Part shown: in pieces, positions 7,603-52,454 of the stretch
Layout of the letters: every line of letters starts with the position of its first letter
Numbering within the stretch: the first letter of the stretch is position 1
Assembly (NCBI GenBank): GCA_016931175.1
Contig: JAFGFH010000014.1
Location: 4,553 to 68,552 of the forward strand
Reading direction: 5' to 3'
Length of the DNA stretch: 64,000 nt
DNA from: Nanobdellota archaeon
Lineage (GTDB): Archaea; Nanobdellota; Nanobdellia; Tiddalikarchaeales; Tiddalikarchaeaceae
Translations under genes and position numbers: made by a program
Notes under the pieces: generated by a model
What the model saw: the letters and a program-made list of their open reading frames with translations, nothing else
Told to the model about the DNA's origin: nothing
Databases searched by the model: none

Positions 7603-8751
7603 TTAAAGCTCTATTAAATTAACCTGTTTGCTTTTGGCTTTGATATTGTTAGATACTATGTTTGAAACTCCTTTCTCTTCTGCAATAGAAACTAATTCCT
7701 TGTCAACAACGCCGTCCACAACTATTGAAACTATGTTATCTGAGCTGTCTGTTAATGTGTTAACTATTTCTGAAGCTGGAAGTTTTCCCTTAATGTTCAT
7801 GTTTTCATCCAACAAGTAAGCTCCTCTTGTTCCGAACAAGTCATTAAGAAGCTCTTTGAACTTATTAGCCTCTCCTTTAACCTCTTTATGAACTTTTTTG
7901 GAGGATGACATCATCTTGCCTCTTGTCTTCTTTCCAAAAAACTCGCTTGCTTTCATCCTTGAACGAAGACATTTGTGAATCTCTTTGCTGGTTAATTCTT
8001 CAACCTCTTTGCCGTCAGGCGCAACTGCTATGTATTCCAAGTTGCCTAGGTTCATCACTTTCTGGGCAATTAATTTCCCTCCCCTGTCGCCGTCAACAAA
8101 CAAGGTACAAACCTTAGTGTCAAGAATTTTTTTAACAGATTTCGGAACGTTTACTCCGTTAACGGATAATAAACCGCCGAAGCGGTTCTTCAGCATGTTA
8201 ACTACATCAGCTCTTCCTTCAACAAGGATTACCTCCTCTGCTGATTCAATATCGTTTGAAGCAGCTAATTTGTCAGGCCCGTACTCTATCAAGTTTGCAG
8301 CCCTCACGCTTTTCTTAACAGTGCTCATTATTTCTTGTGAATCTGTTGATTCCAAATTTAGTTTTTTAAGAAGATTCTTTGCCCTGTCCATTATCATCTC
8401 TCTTTTGTTAAAGCGAACGTCTTCAATCTCTTTCACATTAACCTCTGCTACGCAGGGTCCGATTCTTTCAATAGTTTCAAGGCTTGCAGCTATTATTGCC
8501 GTTTCAGCCTTTGCTAAACTGCTTGGAACTGTTATTGTTCCAGTAGTTTTATCATTCTTTGTTTCAACTTTAACATCTATTCTTCCTATCCTTCCGCTTT
8601 TCTGAAGCTCGCGAAGCTCTAACTCATCACCAAGCAAACCCTCTGTCTGCCCGAAGATGGCGCCTACGATATCATTCTTGTCTATACTTCCTTCAGCTTC
8701 AATCGCTGCGGTTATGATATACTTGGTTGAAACAGGATATATCTTACCCAT
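7603..8751 (-). CDS. dnaG: DNA primase DnaG (archaeal Toprim primase)
   Basis: N-terminus ...IITAAIEAEGSIDKNDIVGAIFGQTEGLLG is characteristic of archaeal DnaG. Toprim region VEGRADVVNM...DGDRGG. Confidence 0.85.
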   Translation of the reverse strand: MGKIYPVSTKYIITAAIEAEGSIDKNDIVGAIFGQTEGLLGDELELRELQKSGRIGRIDVKVETKNDKTTGTITVPSSLAKAETAIIAASLETIERIGPCVAEVNVKEIEDVRFNKREMIMDRAKNLLKKLNLESTDSQEIMSTVKKSVRAANLIEYGPDKLAASNDIESAEEVILVEGRADVVNMLKNRFGGLLSVNGVNVPKSVKKILDTKVCTLFVDGDRGGKLIAQKVMNLGNLEYIAVAPDGKEVEELTSKEIHKCLRSRMKASEFFGKKTRGKMMSSSKKVHKEVKGEANKFKELLNDLFGTRGAYLLDENMNIKGKLPASEIVNTLTDSSDNIVSIVVDGVVDKELVSIAEEKGVSNIVSNNIKAKSKQVNLIEL

Positions 8752-8782: not shown

Positions 8783-9127
8783 TCATAAACCTTCAACGTG
8801 GCTTATTTTCAACTCAGCAAGGTTTTTTTGAAAGGTTTCATCAACCTTCACACCTAACCTGCCAAACTCAGCTTTTAACTTAGAAAACAATTTTCGTCCT
8901 TCAGTGTCATTGTCCATTAATAGTATGACTCTATTATGCAAACTCCCTATCTGCTCAGCAAATGAATATAAAGGCTTGCGTGATAATTGAGTTACTTTTG
9001 TGATTCTAAGCTGTTTGAGCCTGGCAACGTCCTTTGCTCCTTCAACAATAACTAAAGTATCAGCGCGTATAATTTTTTCAATAAACTCTTCCTTTGTTAA
9101 AGGATTTTTGTTGCCCTTTACTAACAC
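8783..9127 (-). CDS. Small Toprim-domain protein (COG1658-like)
   Basis: VIVEGAKD...LLMDNDTEG Toprim acidic motifs in a 114 aa protein immediately upstream of dnaG. Confidence 0.65.
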   Translation of the reverse strand: MLVKGNKNPLTKEEFIEKIIRADTLVIVEGAKDVARLKQLRITKVTQLSRKPLYSFAEQIGSLHNRVILLMDNDTEGRKLFSKLKAEFGRLGVKVDETFQKNLAELKISHVEGL

Positions 9128-9246: not shown

Positions 9247-9264
9247 ATTTACCATATGGTAAAT
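9247..9264. promoter_or_regulatory. Perfect 18-bp palindrome ATTTACCATATGGTAAAT in a 305-bp divergent intergenic region
   Basis: Self-complementary by inspection. A 17/18 match (ATTTACCATATAGTAAAT) occurs at 26929-26946 inside the putative origin. Confidence 0.35.
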
Positions 9265-9432
9265 AATTAAGATTATTTACAGTTTGAAAAACCTTGTTTT
9301 TCAATATAGTAAATAAATAAGTGGTTGTTGAACTGCTAGAAGTATAATATAAGGAATTGATATTCTTTAAGTGTTTTTATCATATAGTATCAATATTCAT
9401 ATATTAAATCAATAGATTGTTTAATTTTTAGA

Positions 9433-10035
9433 ATGACGATTATTCGTGAGTCTAATTTTTCAGATTCTTTGAACAATTTTAATGTTCTAGAAGCATTAGA
9501 CGAATTTGTTTACCAAGTGGCTGCAAAACCGGTTGAGTATCACAGAGAGTACTGCCTGGAGTCCTTTGTTGAGAGGGAATTGTTTGATTTAAACCTGCAG
9601 GAAATGTACAGAGATATTAAGATTCATTACATGATTAAAGAATACTTGTATTACAAAAAACTGTTAACAGAAGAAGTTAAGAACAATAAAAAGGGTTATC
9701 TTGATTTCATCTTAAGAATTGATGTTGAAAGTTACGAATCTGTTAAGGATTCGCTTGTTGGAGACTTCCTTGAGGTGAATCTTTTTGAACTTGAGGAGGT
9801 TATGAGCAAAGATTTCGAACCGGGTGATTTAATCAAGCAGGGATGGAAGTGCTTCATCTTTGACAAGGTTTTGTCAATTCTTGAGAAGCAGACTAAGAAT
9901 TCTATCTTAGAGGATGAGGTAGTTAAGTTCGTAGAGGATAATGGTTTGAAGAATGCTGAACCTCAGTCTATAGCTTGGACTTACGCGATTGAATCTTACA
10001 AGATTGAAGAGAAGAGGTGGAAGGTTTCAGGTTAA
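9433..10035 (+). CDS. Hypothetical protein (200 aa)
   Basis: ORF with acidic, protein-like composition. Confidence 0.45.
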   Translation: MTIIRESNFSDSLNNFNVLEALDEFVYQVAAKPVEYHREYCLESFVERELFDLNLQEMYRDIKIHYMIKEYLYYKKLLTEEVKNNKKGYLDFILRIDVESYESVKDSLVGDFLEVNLFELEEVMSKDFEPGDLIKQGWKCFIFDKVLSILEKQTKNSILEDEVVKFVEDNGLKNAEPQSIAWTYAIESYKIEEKRWKVSG

Positions 10036-21761: not shown

Positions 21762-22037
21762 ATGGGTTTTGAATTCAGCAAGTACTTAACTCCTTGGGTT
21801 GTTGGAGGAGCAATACTTTTAACAACAGTGGGAGTAAGCAGAAACGTCTGGGAAGACTTACTGCAGGGAACAGTAATAGACGGGGTTCAAACAATTAATC
21901 TGGCAGTTAACACTTTAATATTCGTATTATTCTTGTCAATAATGCTCGTGCCTTCTATAAGAGATAATATTAACAAGATGATAAACAAGATTTTTGAGTA
22001 CCCTATGAAGGTTATTGAAAACTTTTTCAAGGTTTAA
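21762..22037 (+). CDS. Small membrane protein
   Basis: 91 aa with two hydrophobic helices. Confidence 0.3.
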   Translation: MGFEFSKYLTPWVVGGAILLTTVGVSRNVWEDLLQGTVIDGVQTINLAVNTLIFVLFLSIMLVPSIRDNINKMINKIFEYPMKVIENFFKV

Positions 22038-23068
22038 TCCTTGTCCCCGTACTGGACCTCGTTGAATATTACTGCTAATTCGTTTTCGAAGTTAATGTTT
22101 GATATTAACTTATTGGTTATGACTTCAACAGTGTTGCTGAAGTCGTTAAAAGATGTTCTGCCGTAGACAATAACCTCTTTTCCCAAGACTCTTTCTGTAA
22201 CGTGCTCTATTGGGTAGCTTGAGTCTTCGTGGCTGTCTGCTAAATCAACAGCTTCTTTTGTGGAGATGCCTAAAAGTTCTTCTGCATCCCTGCCGAAACT
22301 AGTGCATCTCACATTATTCGTGCCGTCGTCTAATACAAAAGATACAAATAATTTCTTATTGGGTTCTATCCTTCCGTGCTCTTTGCACATGTAGATTCCT
22401 TCATCAAGTTTGACGCTCTTGCCGCAGTCAGGGCAGACGTTAAAGAAGCAGTTCTTCTTGAAAACGTTCACAACCACTCCTAAGACCTTAATGTTCATGT
22501 CCCTCTTCAGCTCAATTAAATCTATCCTCTCGCTCTGCCTTTGAACCTTGCTGGCTGAAGGAATCGATTTAGGGTCAATGTCTTCAGGGTTTATTCTAAC
22601 CTTTGTTCTGTAACTGATATGAAGCTCTAACTTGCCGAACTTGTTCTCTTTAACGTAAGCATTAATTACCTTAATTATGTCTCCTTCCTTAATATTCTTA
22701 AACACGGGAATTGAGTCCTCCCAGAAGACTATTCTGACAAAGCCTGTGCCGTCGCTTATGCTTAAAGCTGCAACCTGTGACTCTTTTCCTTCTTTTTGAA
22801 AACTATTAATAGGATATATGTCAACTACTCTTCCCATAACTATTACGTTGCGCAGCCCGCCGACGAGGTTCTTAATGTTAACGTAATCCTGGCTAGCGTC
22901 ACTGTCTATTAAGCTGACTCCTAACTCGTTAGCTATGATGTGGGCCGCTCCTTCCTTGCTGACCAGCTTGTCCAATTCTTTAATCTTGTCTTCAATCTTG
23001 CTAGTTAAGAGTTTTCTGTCTATCCCTGTGCTTTTTACAATTCTTTCAATAATTGTTTCATAATCCAT
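22034..23068 (-). CDS. Replication protein A-like ssDNA-binding protein with zinc ribbon
   Basis: N-terminal helical region typical of archaeal RPA (…KIKELDKLVSKEGAAHIIANELGVSL). OB-fold-like repeats. CPDCGKSVKLDEGIYMCKEHG zinc finger. Confidence 0.55.
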   Translation of the reverse strand: MDYETIIERIVKSTGIDRKLLTSKIEDKIKELDKLVSKEGAAHIIANELGVSLIDSDASQDYVNIKNLVGGLRNVIVMGRVVDIYPINSFQKEGKESQVAALSISDGTGFVRIVFWEDSIPVFKNIKEGDIIKVINAYVKENKFGKLELHISYRTKVRINPEDIDPKSIPSASKVQRQSERIDLIELKRDMNIKVLGVVVNVFKKNCFFNVCPDCGKSVKLDEGIYMCKEHGRIEPNKKLFVSFVLDDGTNNVRCTSFGRDAEELLGISTKEAVDLADSHEDSSYPIEHVTERVLGKEVIVYGRTSFNDFSNTVEVITNKLISNINFENELAVIFNEVQYGDKD

Positions 23069-26112: not shown

Positions 26113-26225
26113 TATTTTTATTGATTTGTAGATTATTTAAAAAGGTTTTAAATAATAGAAGAAACCAGACAATTATTTACAATATTGTAAAAAAATATAA
26201 AAATGTAAGGTGATTAATCCATCCT

Positions 26226-26774
26226 ATGAAAGGCAGACCAGAAGGCAGCATTATTAGAAACAGATTAATAGCTATACTTCAAAGAGTGAGAACTAGTTAC
26301 GGGTATGAACTTTACAAATTATATAAGGAAATCTTTGGGAACGTTCATATAAGAACCATATATTATAATCTAAAAAAAGGCATTGAAAAAGAGGAAATAA
26401 TAGTTGTTAATGTTGCAAGAGAGTTGGGAGATTATTCATGGGGTGATGAGGTTGAAAAAGTGTATTATAGTGTTGGCCCTTACGCAAACCAAACCCTTTC
26501 CAAAAAAGACGTTGAAAAAATAAATGAAATAAAAAATAAAGAGAATAATATTAAGATAGATTGGAAGAAAGAGGTAACAAATATTGTTAACCAGTACAGG
26601 AAAGAGTTCAATGATTATAAGGAAAGGTATGAAAAATTGTCCAATCAAGGAAAGAAATTATTGAAACAGAGGCTTGAAGAAAAATATAAGAAAATAAAAA
26701 AGTACAGTTCTGACAAGATAAGTGAAAACGATTTGAATACTTTAATAAAAGATTCTAACCCCCAGACCCTTTGA
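26226..26774 (+). CDS. PadR-like winged-helix protein with C-terminal coiled coil
   Basis: N-terminus IRNRLIAILQRVRTSYGYELYKLYKEIFG...IYYNLKKGIEKEEI fits the PadR wHTH pattern. The 3' end overlaps the left ORB-like repeat of the putative origin. Confidence 0.45.
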   Translation: MKGRPEGSIIRNRLIAILQRVRTSYGYELYKLYKEIFGNVHIRTIYYNLKKGIEKEEIIVVNVARELGDYSWGDEVEKVYYSVGPYANQTLSKKDVEKINEIKNKENNIKIDWKKEVTNIVNQYRKEFNDYKERYEKLSNQGKKLLKQRLEEKYKKIKKYSSDKISENDLNTLIKDSNPQTL

Positions 26775-26985
26775 TTTCTTGTGGAACTTATGGAGAACGC
26801 GTTTTAAGTGAAAATGTTTCAACTCCTTTATTTCCTCTGGAAATAAGTTATAAAAAGGTTTAAAGCTGTTGTTCCTTTAGAAAAATAAAAGTTTTTATAA
26901 AATCTTCTTGTTTTATATTATATATATTATTTACCATATAGTAAATATATATTATATATGAAGAACTTCCACAAGAACGAAACCC
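26758..26985. other. Putative replication origin (oriC): inverted ORB-like repeats flanking an AT-rich DUE, immediately upstream of orc1/cdc6
   Basis: TTCTTGTGGAA (26776-26786) and TTCCACAAGAA (26967-26977) are an exact inverted 11-mer. The left copy, read on the minus strand, is TTCCACAAGAAatcAAAGGGTCTGGGGG, i.e. an ORB-like core plus G-string. About 160 bp of nearly pure AT lies between them, including the palindrome-like ATTTACCATATAGTAAAT. Confidence 0.55.
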
Positions 26986-27062
26986 TCTAAACCAACAACT
27001 CCATATGAAACAAAGGTGTATCTGTGGTTTTATTACAGAAATATTTATAAGCTCTCTTTCCT

Positions 27063-28286
27063 TTGGAACTGGATATAATGGTGCAAATGTCTGCTTTTGA
27101 TTTCTTTGAGGAATACTTGGACAAACCTTCATTGTTTAAGAACCCTGACGCGTTAACTCTAAAATTTAATCCTGATAATATACCTCACCGTGATAAAGAG
27201 ATTAATCTGATAGCTCAAATACTCGCCCCTGCTTTGAAACAGGTCAAACCATCTAATATATTCATTTACGGCAAACCAGGAACAGGCAAGACATTGGTTG
27301 TTAAGAATGTTTTAAAGAATATGGAGAAAATATCTGGTTCAAAAAATATTCCTCTTAAGCTTATTTACTTGAACTGCAAGATGCAGAACGTTGCTGATAC
27401 TGAGTATCGGGTTGTGGCCCAGATTTCAAGAGAGTTTGGCAAGGACGTTCCTATCACTGGGCTTCCAACCAATGAAGTATATAATGAGTTCTTTAGTGTG
27501 GTTGACGATACTAAACAAGTTGTGATTCTTGTTCTGGATGAGATAGATGTTTTGATTAATAAATGCGGGGATAACATACTTTACAATCTTACCAGGATTA
27601 ATGAGAACTTGAATAATGCTGTTCTTTCAATAATAGGAATCAGCAATGATGTTAATTTCAAGAATAATCTTGAACCAAGAGTTAAGAGCAGTCTTGGTGA
27701 GGAGGAAATAATCTTTAACCCTTATGATGCTTTGCAGCTTAAAGAGATACTTCATCAGAGGGCGGAGCTGGCATTTAATGAGTCTTCTTTTGATCCTCTT
27801 GTTATTGCCAAATGCGCGGCTTATGCAGCCCAGCAGCACGGTGATGCTAGGAGGGCAATTGCTCTTTTCAGGGTTGCAGGCGAATTGGCAGAGAGGGCTA
27901 ATAAAATATTATCTGAAGAGTTTGTTGACATGGCAGAGAAGCAGCTGGAGAAAGACACAGTTATGGAGCTTGTGAAGAATTTAACATTACAGTCAAAGCT
28001 TGTTTTTTACTCTATCATATCTTCTTTGAAGAACAGGGTTACTCCTGCCTTCACTGGTGAGATATTCGAGTTTTATAATCATATTTGCAACAGGAATGGT
28101 TTGGACGTTCTTACTCAGAGAAGGCTGAGCGATTTGATAGGAGAGTTGGACATGCTGGGATTGATTAATGCCAAGGTTATAAGCAAAGGAAGGTATGGCA
28201 GAACAAGAGAGATAAGCTTGGCTGTTGATGCGGATTATGTTAATAAGATAAGCATATGGTTAGAGGATGATTTAGAGCTTAAATAA
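27063..28286 (+). CDS. cdc6: Orc1/Cdc6 origin-binding AAA+ initiator
   Basis: Walker A GKPGTGKT, Walker B VLDEID, C-terminal winged helix. A TATA-like ATTTATAA at 27043-27050 suggests a leaderless start at the Met at 27078. Confidence 0.9.
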   Translation: MELDIMVQMSAFDFFEEYLDKPSLFKNPDALTLKFNPDNIPHRDKEINLIAQILAPALKQVKPSNIFIYGKPGTGKTLVVKNVLKNMEKISGSKNIPLKLIYLNCKMQNVADTEYRVVAQISREFGKDVPITGLPTNEVYNEFFSVVDDTKQVVILVLDEIDVLINKCGDNILYNLTRINENLNNAVLSIIGISNDVNFKNNLEPRVKSSLGEEEIIFNPYDALQLKEILHQRAELAFNESSFDPLVIAKCAAYAAQQHGDARRAIALFRVAGELAERANKILSEEFVDMAEKQLEKDTVMELVKNLTLQSKLVFYSIISSLKNRVTPAFTGEIFEFYNHICNRNGLDVLTQRRLSDLIGELDMLGLINAKVISKGRYGRTREISLAVDADYVNKISIWLEDDLELK

Positions 28287-28761
28287 TTCTTTTCTTTTTT
28301 CTAATAAACCACATTATTAATAATAAAGGTATTAACAACAGTATTATTTTGACTATATTGTTTGTTTCAGCTGCCAAGTTAGTGATTGAAACCTCACTGG
28401 TTTCTATTAAGCTTGAAGCAAGCAAACCTTCTTGTTTAGGCCGAAGGTATGATATTATGAAGTAGCCGTACATTATTGTTATTGCTGCTTTTACTTCCAA
28501 ATCTTTTGTAACTGATTTTAATAATTTTTTTAAATTCATAATCCAATTATTCTTGTAATCATCACTTAATTCGCACAAGGTTATTGTCTTCTTGTCTTTC
28601 TTTGTTTTTTTCACAATTATTAAATTGTCTTTTTTCATATCATTTATTATCTTATGAGTGTAAGAGTAATAATTCCCTGTCCTCTTAGCCAGTTCGCTTA
28701 TACTAACACCAGGAGTTTCTATTAATATTTTAGTGATTTCATCTTTTAATTTTAAATCCAT
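28279..28761 (-). CDS. Membrane-anchored winged-helix (HTH) protein
   Basis: N-terminus ILIETPGVSISELAKRTGNYYSYTHKIINDMKKDNLI is wHTH-like. Two C-terminal transmembrane helices. Confidence 0.45.
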   Translation of the reverse strand: MDLKLKDEITKILIETPGVSISELAKRTGNYYSYTHKIINDMKKDNLIIVKKTKKDKKTITLCELSDDYKNNWIMNLKKLLKSVTKDLEVKAAITIMYGYFIISYLRPKQEGLLASSLIETSEVSITNLAAETNNIVKIILLLIPLLLIMWFIRKKKRII

Positions 28762-30471: not shown

Positions 30472-31956
30472 ATGGGATTCATTGAGGAGTGTTCCAGTAA
30501 AGGTTTTCTCGTCAGCGAAGGAGTTGACTTTTCCAGAGTGAATTCTCAGGATTTTATTAAATACGTCTTAGATTTAAAAGAAAAACCTTTTGTTATAAAT
30601 CAAGAATTAATTGACGGCTTTAAAAATAATAATTCTTTTTTTGGCAAAAATTTGCCTGAAAATCATAGTGTTGAAGTGTCCTCTCCTGTTTTAAGAGATA
30701 AGGGTTTGTCAAGGGTTGAAGTTATTAAATCTTATAATTTAAATAATAAACTCAGGAGTATGAATGACTGGTTTGATTTTTATCTTAACAGGTTTAACAG
30801 GATGAAAAAATTATTAGAGAACAGGAACGGTTTGCGAAACGCCACCAGTATAGCATCGATTAGTAAGATGAGCGGCAAAAACGAAGTCTCAACTATTGGT
30901 TTAGTGAAGGATATTAGAAAGACTAATAATGGTAATTACATGATTGAGTTGGAAGACCCTACTGGTTTGATTAACATATTTGTTGGAACGAGCAAAACTG
31001 AGTTGATAAAACAATGTGAGGATTTAGTTTTGGATGAAGTTATTGGTGTAGTAGGTTCTACAGGCACTAATTTCTTGTACGTTTCAGAATTGGTTTTTCC
31101 AGAGGTTCCTGACAACCCTGTTAAATACGGGCCTGTTGATGAATATGCTTGCTTTATAGCAGATACTCATGTCGGCAGCACTGACTTTGAGCCTAAAATG
31201 TTTGAGAATTTCACTAATTGGTTGAGGGGAGGTTGCGGCACTAATGAGCAGAAAGAGACAGCTAAGAAGGTTAAGTACTTATTTATTATTGGTGACTTGG
31301 TTGATGGAGTGGGTGTTTATCCTTCCCAGTCTTCAGAATTAACTATTAAAGATATTTACAAGCAGTATGAAGTTTTCAGCGATTACTTGAAAGGTTTGCC
31401 TGAAGATATGCAATTAATATTTATTCCTGGAAACCATGATGCTTTAAGACAGAACGAACCCCAGCCCCCTTTATTCAGTGATATTGCGAAACCTGTTTTC
31501 GAACTTAGTAATGCTAAAAACTTGTCAAACCCGAGCGTTGTTAACATAGGCAAGTATTCCAATTTTAACGGTTTTAACGTATTCCTTTACCACGGCTACA
31601 GTTATACTTATTACGCGAATAATGTTCCTAATCTTTTGAATGTTGGAATGGACAGGCCTGAACAAGTTGGTGAATTCCTTCTTAGGAAGAGGCATTTAGC
31701 ACCAACACATTCCAGCAGTTTAATAACACCTGAAATGGTTGATCCTTTCATTATTGATGCTGTTCCTGACATTCTTGCCACAGGACACTTGCACAAACTG
31801 GGCTACAAGATGTACAGGGGTATTAACATCTTAGGAACCAGTTGTTTCCAGAAGATGACTAGTTACATGCAGAAATTAGGCCACCACCCAACGCCTGGTT
31901 TTGTTCCTTTAATAAACTTAAAGACGAGGAATGTTAAGATTATGAACTTCACATGA
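30472..31956 (+). CDS. polB: DNA polymerase II (PolD) small subunit DP1
   Basis: Calcineurin-like phosphoesterase motifs: ADTHVGS, IIGDLVDG, GNHD, TGHLHK. N-terminal OB region. 494 aa. Confidence 0.8.
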   Translation: MGFIEECSSKGFLVSEGVDFSRVNSQDFIKYVLDLKEKPFVINQELIDGFKNNNSFFGKNLPENHSVEVSSPVLRDKGLSRVEVIKSYNLNNKLRSMNDWFDFYLNRFNRMKKLLENRNGLRNATSIASISKMSGKNEVSTIGLVKDIRKTNNGNYMIELEDPTGLINIFVGTSKTELIKQCEDLVLDEVIGVVGSTGTNFLYVSELVFPEVPDNPVKYGPVDEYACFIADTHVGSTDFEPKMFENFTNWLRGGCGTNEQKETAKKVKYLFIIGDLVDGVGVYPSQSSELTIKDIYKQYEVFSDYLKGLPEDMQLIFIPGNHDALRQNEPQPPLFSDIAKPVFELSNAKNLSNPSVVNIGKYSNFNGFNVFLYHGYSYTYYANNVPNLLNVGMDRPEQVGEFLLRKRHLAPTHSSSLITPEMVDPFIIDAVPDILATGHLHKLGYKMYRGINILGTSCFQKMTSYMQKLGHHPTPGFVPLINLKTRNVKIMNFT

Positions 31957-35598: not shown

Positions 35599-38500
35599 GT
35601 GTATTATTCCAATCTTTTAGTAATGGTGGAATGTTCTCCCCGTGTAAGTGAGTATCTGGGTAGTATTGAGAAGGCTACGCTTAAGGAGTATAATTTGGCA
35701 GAGCAAGCCAGGAAGCTAGGCTTCGATCCTGAGGATAAAGTGGATATTCCTTTGGCTGCTGATGTTGCAGAACGTTGTGAGGGTATTGTTGGCGCTGTTG
35801 CTCCTGAAGTTATTGGTGTAGGCATTCCTGCCAGAATCAGGGATTTAGAGAAGGAGTACAGCAGTGGTGATTGGAGGATAGCGTTCATAATAGCTTCTGA
35901 GATAGCTAATGGCAAGTTTTACAAAGTGACTGATTTGAGAAGAGCTTTAGAGACTGGCGTCCGCGTAGGTTTAGCTTATATTACTCTTGGTGTAACGTGC
36001 GCTCCTTTAGAGGGTTTTATTGAATTAAAGCTTAAGAATCGTTTAGACGGCGGGCAGTACTGCGCGGTTTATTACGCAGGTCCTATCAGGGCAGCTGGGG
36101 GAACTGCAGCAGCGGTTAGTGTATTAATTGCTGATTATGCGAGGAAATCGGTTGGTATTAAAGATTATGATCCGCAGCCTGTTGAACTTGACAGGTATTA
36201 TGCGGAGTTAATGGATTACGATGAGAGGGTTAGCAGGTTGCAGTATAAGCCGAATAAGGAAGAGGTTTACTTCCTTGTTAAGAATATTCCTGTAGAGCTT
36301 AACGGCGACCCTACTACGCAGTACGAGGTTAGTAATTATAAAAGGCTTGAAAGGGTTGAGACGGATTTGATAAGAGGGGGAATGTGTTTAGTCTTAGGTG
36401 AGGGTATGAGTTTGAAGGCTAAGAAAGTTATTAAGAACATTGCTAAGTGGGGGGAGAGTGTTGGTATGCAGCACTGGTTATTCCTTAATGACTTTGTTGA
36501 ATTGCAGAAGCAGATTCATGCCCAGGGAGCAACGGTTAAGAAGGAGGAAAATAGCAATGATTCTTGCAAGGTTAAACCAAACACTAAGTTTATTGACGAG
36601 TTAGTAGCAGGCCGTCCAGTATTTAGCCACCCAATGGCTGTTGGCGGGTTCAGGTTAAGGTATGGCAGGAGCAGGTTCAGCGGTTTAGCAGCAGCTTGCG
36701 TTCATCCTGCAACTATGAGGATAACGGATGATTTCATAGCAACAGGCGTGCAGTTAAAGGTGGAGAGGCCGGGTAAAGCTTGTGCTGTCAGCCCTTGTGA
36801 TTCAATATCAGGCCCGTTGGTTAAGCTGAAGAATGGTAATGTTTTATGGCTTAATAGTGAGGAAGAAGCTCTTAAGTACAGGAAAGACGTTTCTGAAGTC
36901 TTATTCTTAGGTGATATTCTTTTCTGTTATGGGGATTTCATGGAGAATGGTTCCATGCTTGTTCCTGCAGGTTACGTTAAGGAGTGGTGGGTTCAGGAGT
37001 TGAAGGCTAAGCTTGGCGGGGACGTAAACCAGCTTCAGAAAGAGGTTAGTGTTGATTTAAACTTGTTATTAAACGAGCCTTTAACAACTAGTGTTGGGTT
37101 AGAAGATTCTGTTATAATATCAAGAAATACTGGTGTGCCTCTTAACCCGGAGCATGTTTTTTTCTGGAATAATATTTCAGCAAATGATTTGAAAAATTTA
37201 GTTCAAGAATTAGAAGGGCTTAATCTTAATCTTGAAAACATTGAGATTGGTTTAAGTGTTAAGCCTGTTCTTGAAAACCTTTACGTTCCCCACCAAGTCG
37301 TTAATGACAAAATATTATTATCTGAACTTGACGGCAGGAGATTGCTTGTTAACTTAGGATATGATAAGGGTTTCAAACAAGCAGTTGGTGATGATGTTCT
37401 GAAAATGGTTAATTCATTAAGCAGTTTTGAGATAAGAGATATTGGCGGGACTTTTATAGGCGCGCGCATGGGCAGGCCTGAGAAGGCTAAGCTTAGAAGA
37501 ATGACTGGAAGCCCTCATGGATTATTCCCTGTAGGAGAGGAGGGAGGCAGGTTAAGGAGTTTTAACGCAGCGAGTGAAGCAGGCAAGGTTACTGCAGAGT
37601 TTTCACTTTTTCACTGCGATAATTGTAATATTGATACTGTTTACAGGTTATGCGAGGAGTGCGGGACCAAGACTAGCAAGAAGTATTATTGCGTTAAGTG
37701 CAAGAAGATAGGTGATAAAGAGGTTTGCTGCGGTGAACACGCGAAGACTTATGTTAAGAAAACAATTGATATTAATCATTATATTAGGAAGGCGCTGACT
37801 AGTTCAGGATTGCAGATGCCTAACTTGGTTAAAGGTGTTAAGGGTGTTTGGGATAAGGACAGGATAACTGAGAATTTCATGAAAGCTTTGCTTCGTTCTA
37901 AGAATAATGTTTACGTTAACAAGGATGGAACAATAAGGTATGATATTATTGAAACCATTGCCACGCATTTTACTTGCGAGGATGCAGGCATTACTGTTGA
38001 AAAAGTTAAAGAGTTAGGTTATTACAAGGACATTCATGGTAAGGAATTAATTTCTTCTTCCCAAGTTATTGAATTGCTGCCCCAGGATGTTATTCTTCCA
38101 AACTGTACTGAGTGGCATGATGCAAGCGCTGTTGATTTCCTTTTAAAGACTTGCAGTTTTATTGATGACGAGTTGGAATACTTGTATCATTTGCCGAGGT
38201 TTTTTAATGTTAGAACAAAGGACGAGTTAATAGGCTTGCATATTATTAGCTTGGCTCCGCATACTAGTGCTGGAATAGTCAGCAGGGTTATTGGTTTCAG
38301 TAATACTCAAGGCATGTACGCTCATCCTTACCTGCACGCTGCGTGCAGGCGAAACGCTGACGGTGACGAGTTAGGAGTGATACTCTTAATGGATGGTTTG
38401 TTGAACTTCAGCAGGCAGTTCCTTCCGGACAGGAGGGGAGGAAGAACCATGGATGCTCCCCTAGTTTTAAGTGTTAAGCTTGATCCTTTAGAGATTGACA

Positions 38501-39102
38501 GTGAAGCGTACAACGTTGATATACAAGATTATTATCCCTTAGAATTTTATACAGCAGCTGATGAGTGCAAGATGCCTTGGGATGTTAAGATTAAACGCGT
38601 TCAGGACGTTCTTAACAGCCCTGAACAGTTTGAAGGATTGAAATACACTCACCCTTCAACAAGTATGAATAAGGGCCCTTTTGTCAGCGCTTATAAGAGT
38701 TTGGAGTCAATGGAGGATAAGATGAATGCTCAGCTTGAACTAGCAATTAAATTAAGGTGCGTTGACCAGGATGATGTTGCGAGACTAGTTATTGACAAGC
38801 ACTTCCTTAAGGATTTGAAAGGTAATCTTAGAAAGTATTCAACTCAAGGATTCAGGTGCGTAAATTGTAATGAGAAGTACAGGCGGCCACCTCTTAGCGG
38901 CAAATGCAACAAGTGCAGCGGTAAGATAATACTTACAATAGCAGAAGGGAGTGTTAAGAAGTACTTGGAGCCGTGCATGAATCTTAATAAGGACTTCAAA
39001 CTGCCTGATTATATGAAGCAGGACTTGATGATATTAGAGAGGAGAATAGAAGGAATGTTTGGTAAGCCCCCAACCAAGCAGGTCAGCTTGTCTGATTTCT
39101 AA
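35599..39102 (+). CDS. polC: DNA polymerase II (PolD) large subunit DP2
   Basis: 1167 aa with DP2-typical N-terminal region and C-terminal zinc fingers (CDNCN...CEECG; CVNCNEKY...CNKCSG). A TATA-like TTTTTAAA at 35589-35596 suggests the real start is the Met at 35623. Confidence 0.9.
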   Translation: MYYSNLLVMVECSPRVSEYLGSIEKATLKEYNLAEQARKLGFDPEDKVDIPLAADVAERCEGIVGAVAPEVIGVGIPARIRDLEKEYSSGDWRIAFIIASEIANGKFYKVTDLRRALETGVRVGLAYITLGVTCAPLEGFIELKLKNRLDGGQYCAVYYAGPIRAAGGTAAAVSVLIADYARKSVGIKDYDPQPVELDRYYAELMDYDERVSRLQYKPNKEEVYFLVKNIPVELNGDPTTQYEVSNYKRLERVETDLIRGGMCLVLGEGMSLKAKKVIKNIAKWGESVGMQHWLFLNDFVELQKQIHAQGATVKKEENSNDSCKVKPNTKFIDELVAGRPVFSHPMAVGGFRLRYGRSRFSGLAAACVHPATMRITDDFIATGVQLKVERPGKACAVSPCDSISGPLVKLKNGNVLWLNSEEEALKYRKDVSEVLFLGDILFCYGDFMENGSMLVPAGYVKEWWVQELKAKLGGDVNQLQKEVSVDLNLLLNEPLTTSVGLEDSVIISRNTGVPLNPEHVFFWNNISANDLKNLVQELEGLNLNLENIEIGLSVKPVLENLYVPHQVVNDKILLSELDGRRLLVNLGYDKGFKQAVGDDVLKMVNSLSSFEIRDIGGTFIGARMGRPEKAKLRRMTGSPHGLFPVGEEGGRLRSFNAASEAGKVTAEFSLFHCDNCNIDTVYRLCEECGTKTSKKYYCVKCKKIGDKEVCCGEHAKTYVKKTIDINHYIRKALTSSGLQMPNLVKGVKGVWDKDRITENFMKALLRSKNNVYVNKDGTIRYDIIETIATHFTCEDAGITVEKVKELGYYKDIHGKELISSSQVIELLPQDVILPNCTEWHDASAVDFLLKTCSFIDDELEYLYHLPRFFNVRTKDELIGLHIISLAPHTSAGIVSRVIGFSNTQGMYAHPYLHAACRRNADGDELGVILLMDGLLNFSRQFLPDRRGGRTMDAPLVLSVKLDPLEIDSEAYNVDIQDYYPLEFYTAADECKMPWDVKIKRVQDVLNSPEQFEGLKYTHPSTSMNKGPFVSAYKSLESMEDKMNAQLELAIKLRCVDQDDVARLVIDKHFLKDLKGNLRKYSTQGFRCVNCNEKYRRPPLSGKCNKCSGKIILTIAEGSVKKYLEPCMNLNKDFKLPDYMKQDLMILERRIEGMFGKPPTKQVSLSDF

Positions 39103-50566: not shown

Positions 50567-52218
50567 CTGCTGTCCTGCTCGTAAGTTTTTTTATTCTTAA
50601 TGCAGAATTCTGCTTTTCCAAGCTCGCTTCCCAGATACATTAAATGGGAAGGATTTATTGAAGTTCCAGCCTCTGCTATATTATTGTATAAATCTTTTGC
50701 TGTTTTTCCTTTGAAGCTTTCAATCCCTGAGTGGTCTATTGGGTGTAAGAGTTTCACTATTATCTCTTCTTTTTCTACTTGTATTGTATAATCTCCTCTG
50801 GCATCTTTGAACTCGCTGCTTGTTTTGTAATACTTTTTCAGCATGTCTTCAACTTGTTTGTAATAGTGAGCGTATATTTGAGCGCTTCCTGAAACAATTG
50901 TTAGTATTCCAGGCTCTACTTTTATCCCTTCTGCTATCTCTTTTTGTATTGCAGCGCAGCCGTAAGCGTTGTCAGGCCAGCCTTGTGTCATGTCGTGGCT
51001 TCTGAAGAATACGAAGAGGTTTAGTTTCTCATCCTGAACCATTGCTTGTAATAATACCAGGCACGGGCTGCTTTTATGCTTCCTCATTAGTTCGTCCTGC
51101 ACGTGCCAAGTGATTGCAACGCAAGCTTTAGAGTAAATATCTCTTTTCAACACTTCTATTATGTCGCTGATTTGGTCTACTTCAGCGTAGCCTTTCACGT
51201 AATATTTAACGTTAGCGTCTATCCAAGGGCCTTTGCCGAACTCGTAATCTTTATACTCTGTCGTGTTTACTAATTCTTTTATCGGCTCGCTTGGTGTAAT
51301 ATAAGCGCGTAATTTGTTGCCGTAAGTGTAAGCCTTTCCTTCCGGAAGCAAAGGGCTTAGTATTTCTTTCTTGTAAGCCTCTATCTTTTCAATTGTTAAA
51401 GGCACTAAGAAGGGATTAATGCTTAAGTCAGTGTTTTGAGGGTCGTGTATTACTACAGTCATATTGTTTATCTCTTTCACCCACCTGTCAGTGTTAGCGT
51501 TCATTAAGTTTTTTCTGCCGTAAGTGTTTATTGCGTGTATCATTTTTATCCAAGCGTCTGGTATGTTGGAGCCGTGAACTATTATTGGTCCGCCTTCGTA
51601 AGGTTTGGTTTCTTCCTGTTTTGTGTAATCGTAATTTGATGGGTTGGAATAAGCTTCTTCTTTCTCTTTCTTCATTATTTCATTAGCTTTTGCAATCTTG
51701 TCCTGCAGTGAAGCATTTTTCATCTCAGTATTCAAGTCGATTAATTTCACATTATCTATAATTTTTTTTATCTCACTCGTTGGTATGTTCTTGTCAAAGT
51801 TTACTGCAGTCTCGAATCCCGGTATCTTCCTGTCCTCGTTTATTCCTTTTGTGAAGAAAGCTCTTAAAGCGTTCGCGCTGGTTAGTTCACTCTTAGTCTC
51901 GCACCCGTCCTTGCTCGCGTACTCTTCCCCTAATATTATTATATATCTTATGTAGGGGTTGCCGAGGAGGTTCCTGACCATGCCTTCTATTCCCGCTGGT
52001 GTGTAGAAATTAGTGGCTATTGCGAGATTATCCTTGTCCAACTGGGGGAGTACTGCGTCTCTCATCGTCCATAAGAATGTGACTGCGTAATTTGCAGGAG
52101 TAACTCTTAACTCTTTTGAGTGAGGATATGCTATCCTGTCTCTTACAGCGACTGGCCAGCCTTTCTCACCGTTGCTGCCAATCTGTGATTTAATAGAATC
52201 TAATATCTTCTCCTTCAT
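50563..52218 (-). CDS. Thymidylate synthase (ThyA)-family protein; the N-terminal ~330 aa region aligns only weakly to ThyA or not at all
   Basis: C-terminal region aligns to ThyA core motifs: ITWHVQDEL (as AWNVGEL), SPCLVLLQ (catalytic Cys, as PCHAFFQF), RSHDMTQGWPDNAYGCAAIQ (as RSCDVFLGLPFNIASYALL), GSAQIYAHYY (as GDTHLYSNH). The C-terminal ~220 aa carries these core motifs; residues ~200-330 show weak similarity to the ThyA N-terminal core, and the first ~200 aa have no recognisable motif. Confidence 0.65.
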   Translation of the reverse strand: MKEKILDSIKSQIGSNGEKGWPVAVRDRIAYPHSKELRVTPANYAVTFLWTMRDAVLPQLDKDNLAIATNFYTPAGIEGMVRNLLGNPYIRYIIILGEEYASKDGCETKSELTSANALRAFFTKGINEDRKIPGFETAVNFDKNIPTSEIKKIIDNVKLIDLNTEMKNASLQDKIAKANEIMKKEKEEAYSNPSNYDYTKQEETKPYEGGPIIVHGSNIPDAWIKMIHAINTYGRKNLMNANTDRWVKEINNMTVVIHDPQNTDLSINPFLVPLTIEKIEAYKKEILSPLLPEGKAYTYGNKLRAYITPSEPIKELVNTTEYKDYEFGKGPWIDANVKYYVKGYAEVDQISDIIEVLKRDIYSKACVAITWHVQDELMRKHKSSPCLVLLQAMVQDEKLNLFVFFRSHDMTQGWPDNAYGCAAIQKEIAEGIKVEPGILTIVSGSAQIYAHYYKQVEDMLKKYYKTSSEFKDARGDYTIQVEKEEIIVKLLHPIDHSGIESFKGKTAKDLYNNIAEAGTSINPSHLMYLGSELGKAEFCIKNKKTYEQDSS

Positions 52219-52454
52219 ATGTAAGAAAAGGATTAAATTAAGGGTTTATTAAGGTTTTCAATAGTTTTTTTTATTTAATACTTATTTTTAAAATAATTAT
52301 GAAATGTTTAGAAAGTAAGATTTTTTTTAAAAAATATTGATTTGCAGCAGATTAATGAGGGTTTATACGAAAGACAGCGTAGAGAGGTTGAAAAAGAAGT
52401 TAATAGCATGAATCGTTATACTCCCGGGCTTTTAAGAACAAAACTGGGATGAAA

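Follow-up and report, generated by a model that had tools for sequence, protein, structure and literature searches.

A predicted oriC1-type replication origin and a shared palindrome upstream of orc1 in a DPANN archaeon

Does the region in front of the orc1/cdc6 gene of a DPANN archaeon related to Candidatus Tiddalikarchaeum hold a chromosomal replication origin, and if so, of which kind? The question is raised by a stretch of 64,000 nucleotides from a Nanobdellota archaeon (assembly GCA_016931175.1, contig JAFGFH010000014.1, positions 4,553 to 68,552 of the forward strand), which is called the window in the following and to which all coordinates refer. A sequence-only reading of the window had proposed an oriC-orc1 origin, in which two inverted 11-mers resembling archaeal origin recognition boxes (ORBs) flank an AT-rich element upstream of orc1. 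Descriptions of replication origins of DPANN archaea, or of ORB origins within this group, were not found in the searchable literature. The proposal is supported by the class of the initiator, the ORB consensus, a position weight matrix (PWM) and a layout conserved in relatives, and region 26759-27069 is very probably a canonical chromosomal origin of the oriC1 type with an initiator of the Orc1-1 class.

Recognition boxes and initiator gene

The inverted pair of 11-mers from which the proposal had started is exact: TTCTTGTGGAA (26776-26786) and TTCCACAAGAA (26967-26977) are reverse complements of each other, with 180 nt between them. Exact inverted 11-mer pairs not more than 300 nt apart occur 13 times in the window, while second-order Markov simulations gave 10.7 +/- 4.6; for pairs with at least four G/C, six were observed and 3.5 expected, and the 11-mer itself, with up to one mismatch allowed, occurs three times with an expectation of 2.45. 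The 11-mer pair alone is therefore no evidence of an origin. Read on the minus strand, from 26786 down to 26759, the left copy continues as TTCCACAAGAAATCAAAGGGTCTGGGGG, as had been claimed, and its box lies, likewise as claimed, over the 3' end of the upstream gene (26226-26774), where it covers the five final codons, for NPQTL, together with the stop codon. The right copy runs on as CGAAACCCTCTAAACC, which bears out its description as a mini-ORB-like site without G-string; it is not the functional partner of the left ORB, though, since this partner is the G-rich full ORB CTCCATATGAAACAAAGGTGTATCTGT at 26999-27025. Of the two-box origin originally drawn, the identification of ORB-L1 and the mini-ORB character of the right copy have stood, but ORB-L2, ORB-R2 and a promoter-proximal core were overlooked. 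The spacer had been called essentially pure A/T, which is wrong: it includes a second full ORB (26816-26844) as well as sequence of ordinary composition, and only the part from about 26881 to 26961 is extreme. In total the region holds three full ORBs, one mini-ORB and one promoter-proximal core, which are arranged with the neighbouring elements as follows:

26759-26787, minus strand: ORB-L1, full ORB, GTTCCACAAGAAATCAAAGGGTCTGGGGG, with the core toward the AT-rich region and the G-string outermost; conserved alignment block
26816-26844, minus strand: ORB-L2, full ORB, ATTTCCAGAGGAAATAAAGGAGTTGAAAC, in the same orientation as ORB-L1, G-string weakened (GGAG)
26872-26882, no strand assigned: possible degenerate mini-ORB core, TTCCTTTAGAA, of doubtful significance
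26881-26961, no strand assigned: AT-rich duplex unwinding element, 10-12% GC, jointly the lowest value of any 80-nt stretch in the window
26967-26977, plus strand: mini-ORB R1, TTCCACAAGAA followed by CGAAACCCTC, without G-string and absent from the full-ORB PWM matches
26998-27025, plus strand: ORB-R2, full right-hand ORB, ACTCCATATGAAACAAAGGTGTATCTGT, in opposite orientation to ORB-L1 and ORB-L2, beginning with CTCC
27035-27051, plus strand: orc1 promoter, a purine-rich B recognition element (BRE)-like CAGAAAT followed by the TATA box TTTATAAG (27044-27051)
27057-27069, minus strand: promoter-proximal ORB core, TTTCCTTTGGAAC (minus reading GTTCCAAAGGAAA), between TATA box and ATG
27078-28286, plus strand: orc1/cdc6, 402 aa, initiator of the Orc1-1 class by Pfam and PDB matches, ATG start

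For an independent search the PWM was trained on 19 boxes from six other genomes only, those of the close relatives L001-L005 and L058, and the 64-kb window was scanned with it. ORB-L1 was the best match in the window (26760-26791, minus strand, 30.8 bits), joined by ORB-R2 (26994-27025, plus strand, 24.9 bits) and ORB-L2 (26816-26847, minus strand, 19.1 bits); the next-best site in the 64 kb reached 5.5 bits and the top site of 20 shuffled windows 17.3 bits. The literature-derived pattern TCCA-N3-GAAA-N1-2-AAAGG gave the same result, with three matches in the window, namely ORB-L1, ORB-L2 and ORB-R2, and none in 100 shuffles. All three window matches of TTTCYTNTGGAA lie in the origin region (0.21 expected), and five of the 14 TTCC-N4-GAA positions of the 64 kb fall inside 300 bp at the origin. 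A better ORB cluster elsewhere, which would have spoken against the proposal, does not occur in the window: full-ORB pattern and PWM matches are confined to this region, and the PWM scan found no second ORB cluster.

The boxes can be set beside the archaeal ORB consensus CTTCCAGTGGAAACGAAAGGGGT, as attributed to Pelve et al. in Table 2 of PMC4153887 and found also in PMC1868953, and beside the euryarchaeal consensus GTTCCAGTGGAAAC-AAA----GGGGG (PMC1868953). In the ORBs and mini-ORBs of Pyrococcus TTCC and GAA are invariant (PMC1904270), and both are retained in the boxes of the window, except that ORB-R2 reads CTCC. The left boxes ORB-L1 and ORB-L2 read on the minus strand and the right ones, R1 and R2, on the plus strand, with the TTCC-N4-GAA cores beside the AT-rich centre and the AAAGG or G-rich tails pointing outward. 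In archaeal origins ORBs of opposite polarity flank the unwinding element, the MCM-contacting faces of the initiator (lid and winged helix) point inward and MCM is loaded between them (PMC6742236; PMC12141716). The predicted geometry at 26759-27069 fits this opposed-ORB loading model exactly.

The initiator gene begins 101 nt past the right 11-mer, with the ATG at 27078, in line with the earlier estimate of 80-100 bp. Its product is 100% identical to a 402-aa orc1/cdc6 protein of a Nanoarchaeota metagenome-assembled genome (MAG) at NCBI and carries the Pfam domains Cdc6_C (9e-29), Cdc6_lid (7e-19) and AAA. The closest PDB matches are Orc1-1 of S. solfataricus (2qby_A, 4.9e-100) and ORC1 of A. 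pernix (2v1u, 8.7e-97), both of them initiators crystallised on origin boxes; Orc1-3 (1.3e-48) and the ORC2/Cdc6-2 class (1w5s, 2.6e-15) matched far more weakly. A second orc1 was not found in the 64-kb window. Mechanical prediction starts the open reading frame (ORF) with a TTG at 27063, which falls into the promoter-proximal ORB core; in homologues and in the deposited protein of 402 aa the start is the ATG at 27078 (MVQ...). The TATA box lies 27-34 nt upstream of this ATG, and the orc1 mRNA is therefore probably leaderless or near-leaderless. Convergent with orc1, and overlapping its 3' end by 8 nt, an ORF on the minus strand (28279-28761) encodes a protein of 160 aa, which has an HTH_24 winged helix at its N-terminus and a hydrophobic segment at its C-terminus.

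Some further features of the intergenic region were considered and discarded. A cruciform or hairpin in the unwinding element (-5.9 kcal/mol, z = -1.18) is no more stable than in shuffled sequences, and an RNA gene is not indicated, with no Rfam match at E <= 1. A 90-aa ORF on the minus strand (26860-27132), which runs across the unwinding element, the right boxes and the orc1 start, is judged spurious and almost certainly not a gene, because the relatives show indels there that are not multiples of three. Outside the region, a second 80-nt stretch with 10% GC was noticed at 52265-52344; it is intergenic, between ORFs ending at 52218 and 52715, and there are no ORB matches nearby.

Conservation of the layout in relatives

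Two sets of related loci were compared. The close relatives, i.e. the six genomes used for the PWM, share 70-79% Orc1 identity with the window and were aligned together with it (seven genomes); the distant set comprises 74 further DPANN loci with 51-61% Orc1 identity, labelled Woesearchaeota, Nanoarchaeia, Aenigmatarchaeota and others. The order of the blocks is the same in all six close loci: two left boxes, the AT-rich centre, the right mini-box, the right full box, the TATA box and the core in front of the ATG. Within this order the left boxes of the relatives read TTCCATAGGAAAtnAnGGGGTGtggg on the minus strand, the position of ORB-L2 is kept at 56-68 nt from ORB-L1, that of mini-ORB R1 is occupied by a conserved TTCCATAAGAA, ORB-R2 is conserved as TTCCAnnnGAAATAAAGGTGTATGTGTG and the orc1 TATA box reads AAATATTTATAAGCT. 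At 26872-26882, the site of the possible degenerate core, no conserved block was seen in the alignment with the close relatives. All columns but one are invariant in the promoter block (A340-G352 of the alignment), and the core TTCCTTTGGA before the ATG is invariant in 7/7 genomes.

Among the distant loci, the 700 bp in front of orc1 contained at least one ORB match in 72 of 74 and at least two in 66 of 74. The density of ORB matches over these 74 loci was 3.99 per kb upstream of orc1 and 0.056 per kb elsewhere, a difference of about 70-fold, and in the usual layout the plus-strand boxes lie nearer to orc1 and the minus-strand boxes farther away. A minus-oriented core not more than 70 nt from the orc1 ATG was found in 38 of 78 loci, typically in the succession TATA box, 8 nt, TTTC-N4-GGAA, 6-10 nt, ATG; the obvious inference is that the promoter-proximal core is a candidate site for autorepression by Orc1. 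Extra clusters of two to three ORB matrix or pattern matches were noticed several kb from orc1 in four loci (L040, about +4920 to +5075; L023 and L025, about -2750 to -3050; L076, 1104-1195), which could be second clusters like that in Pyrococcus dp1, or second origins.

For the mode of action, the homology of the initiator offers a guide. Orc1-1 binds an ORB as a monomer, with the winged-helix domain on the mini-ORB part and the initiator-specific motif of the AAA+ domain on the adjacent DNA (PMC3089459). By homology, Orc1 monomers would occupy ORB-L1 and ORB-L2 on one side and ORB-R2, and probably mini-ORB R1, on the other, placing their winged-helix domains on the TTCC-N4-GAA cores that face the AT-rich centre and their AAA+ domains on the outward AAAGG or G-rich extensions. 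The opposed polarity would turn the helicase-recruiting faces inward, so that MCM would be loaded onto the 80-nt element of 10% GC and the duplex would open there. Orc1 bound to the fifth core, between TATA box and ATG, would block the recruitment of the pre-initiation complex or of RNA polymerase and thus repress its own gene. As a more speculative and lineage-specific step, a dimer of the PadR-like protein encoded upstream might bind a 16-bp palindrome in the unwinding element as well as its own operator, thereby regulating its own gene and modulating the origin.

A palindrome shared with the PadR-like gene

The gene upstream of the origin and the palindromes to which it may be related are located as follows:

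26226-26774, plus strand: gene for a PadR-like winged-helix protein, 182 aa, syntenic with the origin; NPQTL and stop codon overlap the G-string of ORB-L1
26930-26945, no strand assigned: palindrome TTTACCATATAGTAAA in the middle of the unwinding element, candidate site of the PadR-like protein
26176-26191, no strand assigned: palindrome TTTACAATATTGTAAA, candidate autoregulatory operator of the PadR-like gene, 35 nt ahead of its ATG and shortly before its TATA-like AAAATATAAAA
9248-9263 and 9298-9313, no strand assigned: palindrome copies TTTACCATATGGTAAA and TTTTCAATATAGTAAA, 50 nt apart, the copy at 9298 with one mismatch

The description of the upstream product as a PadR-like winged helix-turn-helix (wHTH) protein is supported at the level of the fold only and not by matches to sequence families. 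No Pfam family was hit at E <= 0.01 and nothing related to PadR at E <= 5, and the best PadR match in a sequence search of the PDB was 3hhh with E = 0.91. The AlphaFold2 model (predicted local distance difference test, pLDDT, 84.9; predicted template modelling score, pTM, 0.77) has the order H-S-H-H-S-S of a wHTH followed by long C-terminal helices, and with Foldseek PadR regulators were the best matches, led by chains of the B. subtilis PadR-operator complex (5x11) within the top eight (E from 4.7e-4); many more PadR entries ranked below them. The B. subtilis replication terminator protein 1f4k, at rank 13, was taken as a generic wHTH similarity. The family is small, with only 33 homologues detected, several of them on contigs that agree in length with those of the orc1 homologues. 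By tblastn the gene was located next to orc1 in 14 loci, and in the readable loci it lies beside orc1 or a few kb away, among replication genes. The C-terminus of the protein, (I)NP(P/D/Q)T(P/L), is kept in most homologues and is encoded by the C-run which on the other strand is the G-string of ORB-L1 (AACCCCCAGACCCTTTGA); protein and box thus appear to constrain the same bases.

Besides the orc1 promoter, TTTACCATATAGTAAA is the best-conserved intergenic block, almost entirely invariant in the seven genomes. The conserved block of the unwinding element, written as TTTACnATATAGTAAAT, is specific to origins, with 13 matches upstream of orc1 and one elsewhere in about 800 kb. Exact TTTAC-N6-GTAAA occurs three times in the window, in the unwinding element, at 26176-26191 and at 9248-9263, where 0.2 would be expected. 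Both positions, in the unwinding element and in the promoter of the PadR-like gene, recur in relatives, also in more distant loci with the divergent form TTTTCnATATAGAAAA; L074 has one identical 25-mer, TTATTTTCAATATAGTAAATAAATA, at both, and in nine related loci the palindrome of the gene's own promoter is found at -17 to -50 from the gene start. The origin contains TTACNATATAG in 9/14 loci with a PadR-like gene beside orc1 and in 0/50 without (Fisher p = 7e-8). For the looser TTWWCNATATNGWWA the corresponding counts are 10/14 and 8/50 (p = 1.6e-4), and in about 835 kb only three matches fall neither in an origin nor in the gene's own promoter. A scan of metagenomes for ATTTACNATATAGTAAAT yielded at least 120 matches, mostly by chance in unrelated AT-rich DNA, and the motif alone is therefore not diagnostic in very large databases; three of these matches (L120, L144, L174) adjoin orc1, two of them with a PadR-like gene.

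The recognition helix adds a further correspondence, since one clade has R-N-L/I/V-YYNLKKG in place of the motif R-T/S-I-YYNLKKG, and in this clade the half-sites of the promoter are altered as well, from GTAAA to GAAAA. This parallel change is only suggestive of a link between protein and palindrome, because it probably represents one evolutionary event. The link is weakened by the 8/50 loci whose origins contain the generalised palindrome with no such gene within 6 kb, and some other factor could be responsible for the palindrome. The conserved pairing of palindrome and gene suggests an origin-bound regulator, and it would be read most economically as a dimeric autoregulator with a second site in the middle of the origin. 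We further entertain, as a tentative and rather doubtful proposal, that the PadR-like protein is a dedicated, lineage-restricted origin factor, whose dimer would bind TTWWCnATATnGWWA both in its own promoter and precisely in the middle of the unwinding element, and so couple its own level to origin firing, be it by licensing or by blocking or assisting the loading or egress of MCM; it would then be the DPANN counterpart, with an unrelated fold, of the ucm/UBP pair of Sulfolobus. The copies at 9248 and 9298 lie between two divergent genes, on one side a small Toprim gene (8783-9127, minus strand) with the DnaG-like gene behind it, on the other a gene for 200 aa without family (9433-10035, plus strand), and may represent a small regulon shared with the origin. 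If the proposal of an origin factor were true, the same palindrome in front of the Toprim/DnaG-like pair would make this a small replication regulon.

Alternative readings and comparison with known origins

Several observations weigh against a chromosomal origin at this site. The organism is an uncultivated MAG and the assignment is based entirely on sequence; moreover, Thermococcus kodakarensis grows without using its ORB-bearing origin (PMC5663688), and a well-formed origin is therefore no proof of use. As dyads, the cores (for example TTCCACAAGAA) are weaker than the classical TTCCAGTGGAA, the G-string of ORB-L2 is degraded and ORB-R2 starts with CTCC. Cumulative GC skew, in which an inflection at 26.9 kb had been looked for, follows the coding strand over the 64 kb and has no inflection beyond gene-strand noise there, so that it is uninformative. 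Over 80 pooled loci the GC skew of coding strands was 0.105 for leading and 0.139 for lagging genes (p = 3e-4), a small difference and opposite to the usual G-rich leading strand. Within the window alone, 24 genes point away from the site and 27 toward it, i.e. without orientation bias.

The pooled skew difference was seen to disappear when the boundary was placed 3 kb to the left and to persist when it was moved to the right. For gene orientation, the 80 loci together gave 318 genes pointing away from the site and 196 toward it (p = 8e-8, from counts which are not fully independent because of shared synteny), and this bias became weaker with the boundary 3 kb to the left and was absent with the boundary 3 kb to the right.

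The replication genes of the neighbourhood, which bear on the alternatives, are these:

7603-8751: DnaG-like Toprim protein
22034-23068: RPA
30472-31956: PolD DP1 (small subunit)
35623-39102: PolD DP2 (large subunit)

RPA and both PolD subunits are thus encoded within 12 kb of the origin, and eRF1 and tRNAs are also found in the flanks. In the distant relatives L085 and L086 the order is DP2, origin, orc1, DP1, a small ORF, RPA, PadR-like gene and P-type ATPase; this is the replication island of the Thermococcales type (PMC1904270).

Could the boxes serve as transcriptional operators only, through which Orc1, in the manner of the Sulfolobus regulator Orc1-2, and the PadR-like protein control orc1, while replication starts elsewhere? 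Non-initiator Orc1 paralogues acting as regulators exist (PMC9738581), no other core is as well conserved as the promoter-proximal one of orc1, the palindrome is also present in another promoter and a skew signal is absent. Repression would, however, need the promoter-proximal site alone and would leave unexplained why two pairs of full ORBs face outward around an element of 10% GC at 110-300 nt upstream; the protein belongs to the Orc1-1 and not to the Orc1-2 class, the arrangement is kept across lineages whose promoter sequence is not, and over the pooled loci genes point away from the site more often than toward it. We therefore regard a purely regulatory role as improbable. Still less probably, the origin belongs to an integrated plasmid or virus with an orc1 of its own and not to the chromosome. 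Archaeal pairs of orc1 and origin do often come from extrachromosomal elements (PMC4010727), and the visible portion of the genome is 64 kb only, but the flanks encode the core chromosomal functions just named, Orc1 is of the widely conserved Orc1-1 type, no other orc1 occurs in the window, and the linkage of orc1, PolD and RPA recurs in distant relatives, though gene order varies by clade. That the locus is a functionless chance inverted repeat in AT-rich intergenic DNA is hardly conceivable: the 11-mer and its inverted pairs do occur at the frequencies expected by chance, as given above, but the extended pattern, the PWM scan and the conservation across genomes exclude this explanation.

A chromosomal origin at 26759-27069 would extend the canonical design of ORBs on both sides of an unwinding element to loci of Nanoarchaeota, Woesearchaeota and Aenigmarchaeota, organisms which cannot be grown alone. 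The analysis provides an ORB matrix usable in these lineages and an anchor point for growth-rate estimates from peak-to-trough coverage in metagenomes. With its link to a regulator gene next door, the conserved palindrome of the unwinding element offers a concrete candidate for archaeal origin regulation, and the only such case found in the literature searched is ucm/UBP (2025).

Among the described origins, that of Pyrococcus and the Thermococcales (an inverted pair ORB1/ORB2, 13-bp mini-ORBs and the order oriC-cdc6-dp1-dp2) also mixes long ORBs with mini-ORBs and has TTCC...GAA (PMC1904270). It likewise lies directly upstream of a single cdc6/orc1 gene with PolD genes near, and the order DP2, origin, orc1, DP1 recurs in the distant relatives of the window. 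In contrast to Pyrococcus, there is no second ORB cluster inside dp1 of the window, where the best PWM score, 5.5 bits, is below that of shuffled sequences, and the clade of the window has unrelated genes between orc1 and the PolD genes; the organism, moreover, is a mesophilic, AT-rich DPANN archaeon. The predicted ORB origins of Methanomassiliicoccales and haloarchaeal oriC1 are alike in having inverted pairs of ORBs beside orc1/cdc6.1, with the form GTTCCAGTGGAAATGG-AGGGGT (PMC4153887), and in carrying a G-string at the outer end of each ORB (PMC1868953); the extended G-string of the halophile type is missing in the window, and ORB-L1 lies partly within the upstream coding sequence. A site for a sequence-specific protein other than the initiator inside the origin, as proposed for the palindrome, is also known from E. 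coli oriC with IHF and Fis, a parallel that has been drawn for UBP too (PMC12141716), although E. coli belongs to another domain of life with another initiator and binding at the palindrome is predicted here from shared motifs only.

The closest likeness of the initiator is to oriC1 of Sulfolobus/Saccharolobus (Orc1-1, ORB1-3) and of Aeropyrum pernix, whose two ORB-bound proteins of solved structure are its nearest relatives. These origins agree with the window in ORBs made of a core and a G-rich extension, in their opposed arrangement around an AT-rich unwinding element and in the orc1 gene alongside. They differ in that the cores of the window are AT-richer with weaker dyads (TTCCAnAnGAA instead of TCCAGTGGAA) and in that the window has two boxes on each side and one inside the orc1 promoter. 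The Sulfolobales also carry a conserved short motif within the unwinding element, ucm, to which the palindrome is compared by analogy and not by alignment of the sequences; ucm lies midway between ORB2 and ORB3, is essential for the firing of oriC1 and is bound by UBP, which contacts MCM (PMC12141716). Whereas UBP is a saddle-shaped beta-hairpin protein, the motif in the window is a 16-bp palindrome and its candidate binder a PadR-like wHTH dimer; the PadR-like protein would therefore be an analogue of UBP and not a homologue. Compared with these systems, the predicted origin itself follows the standard archaeal plan and is of a known kind, and the pairing of palindrome and PadR-like gene is the one element that could be new.

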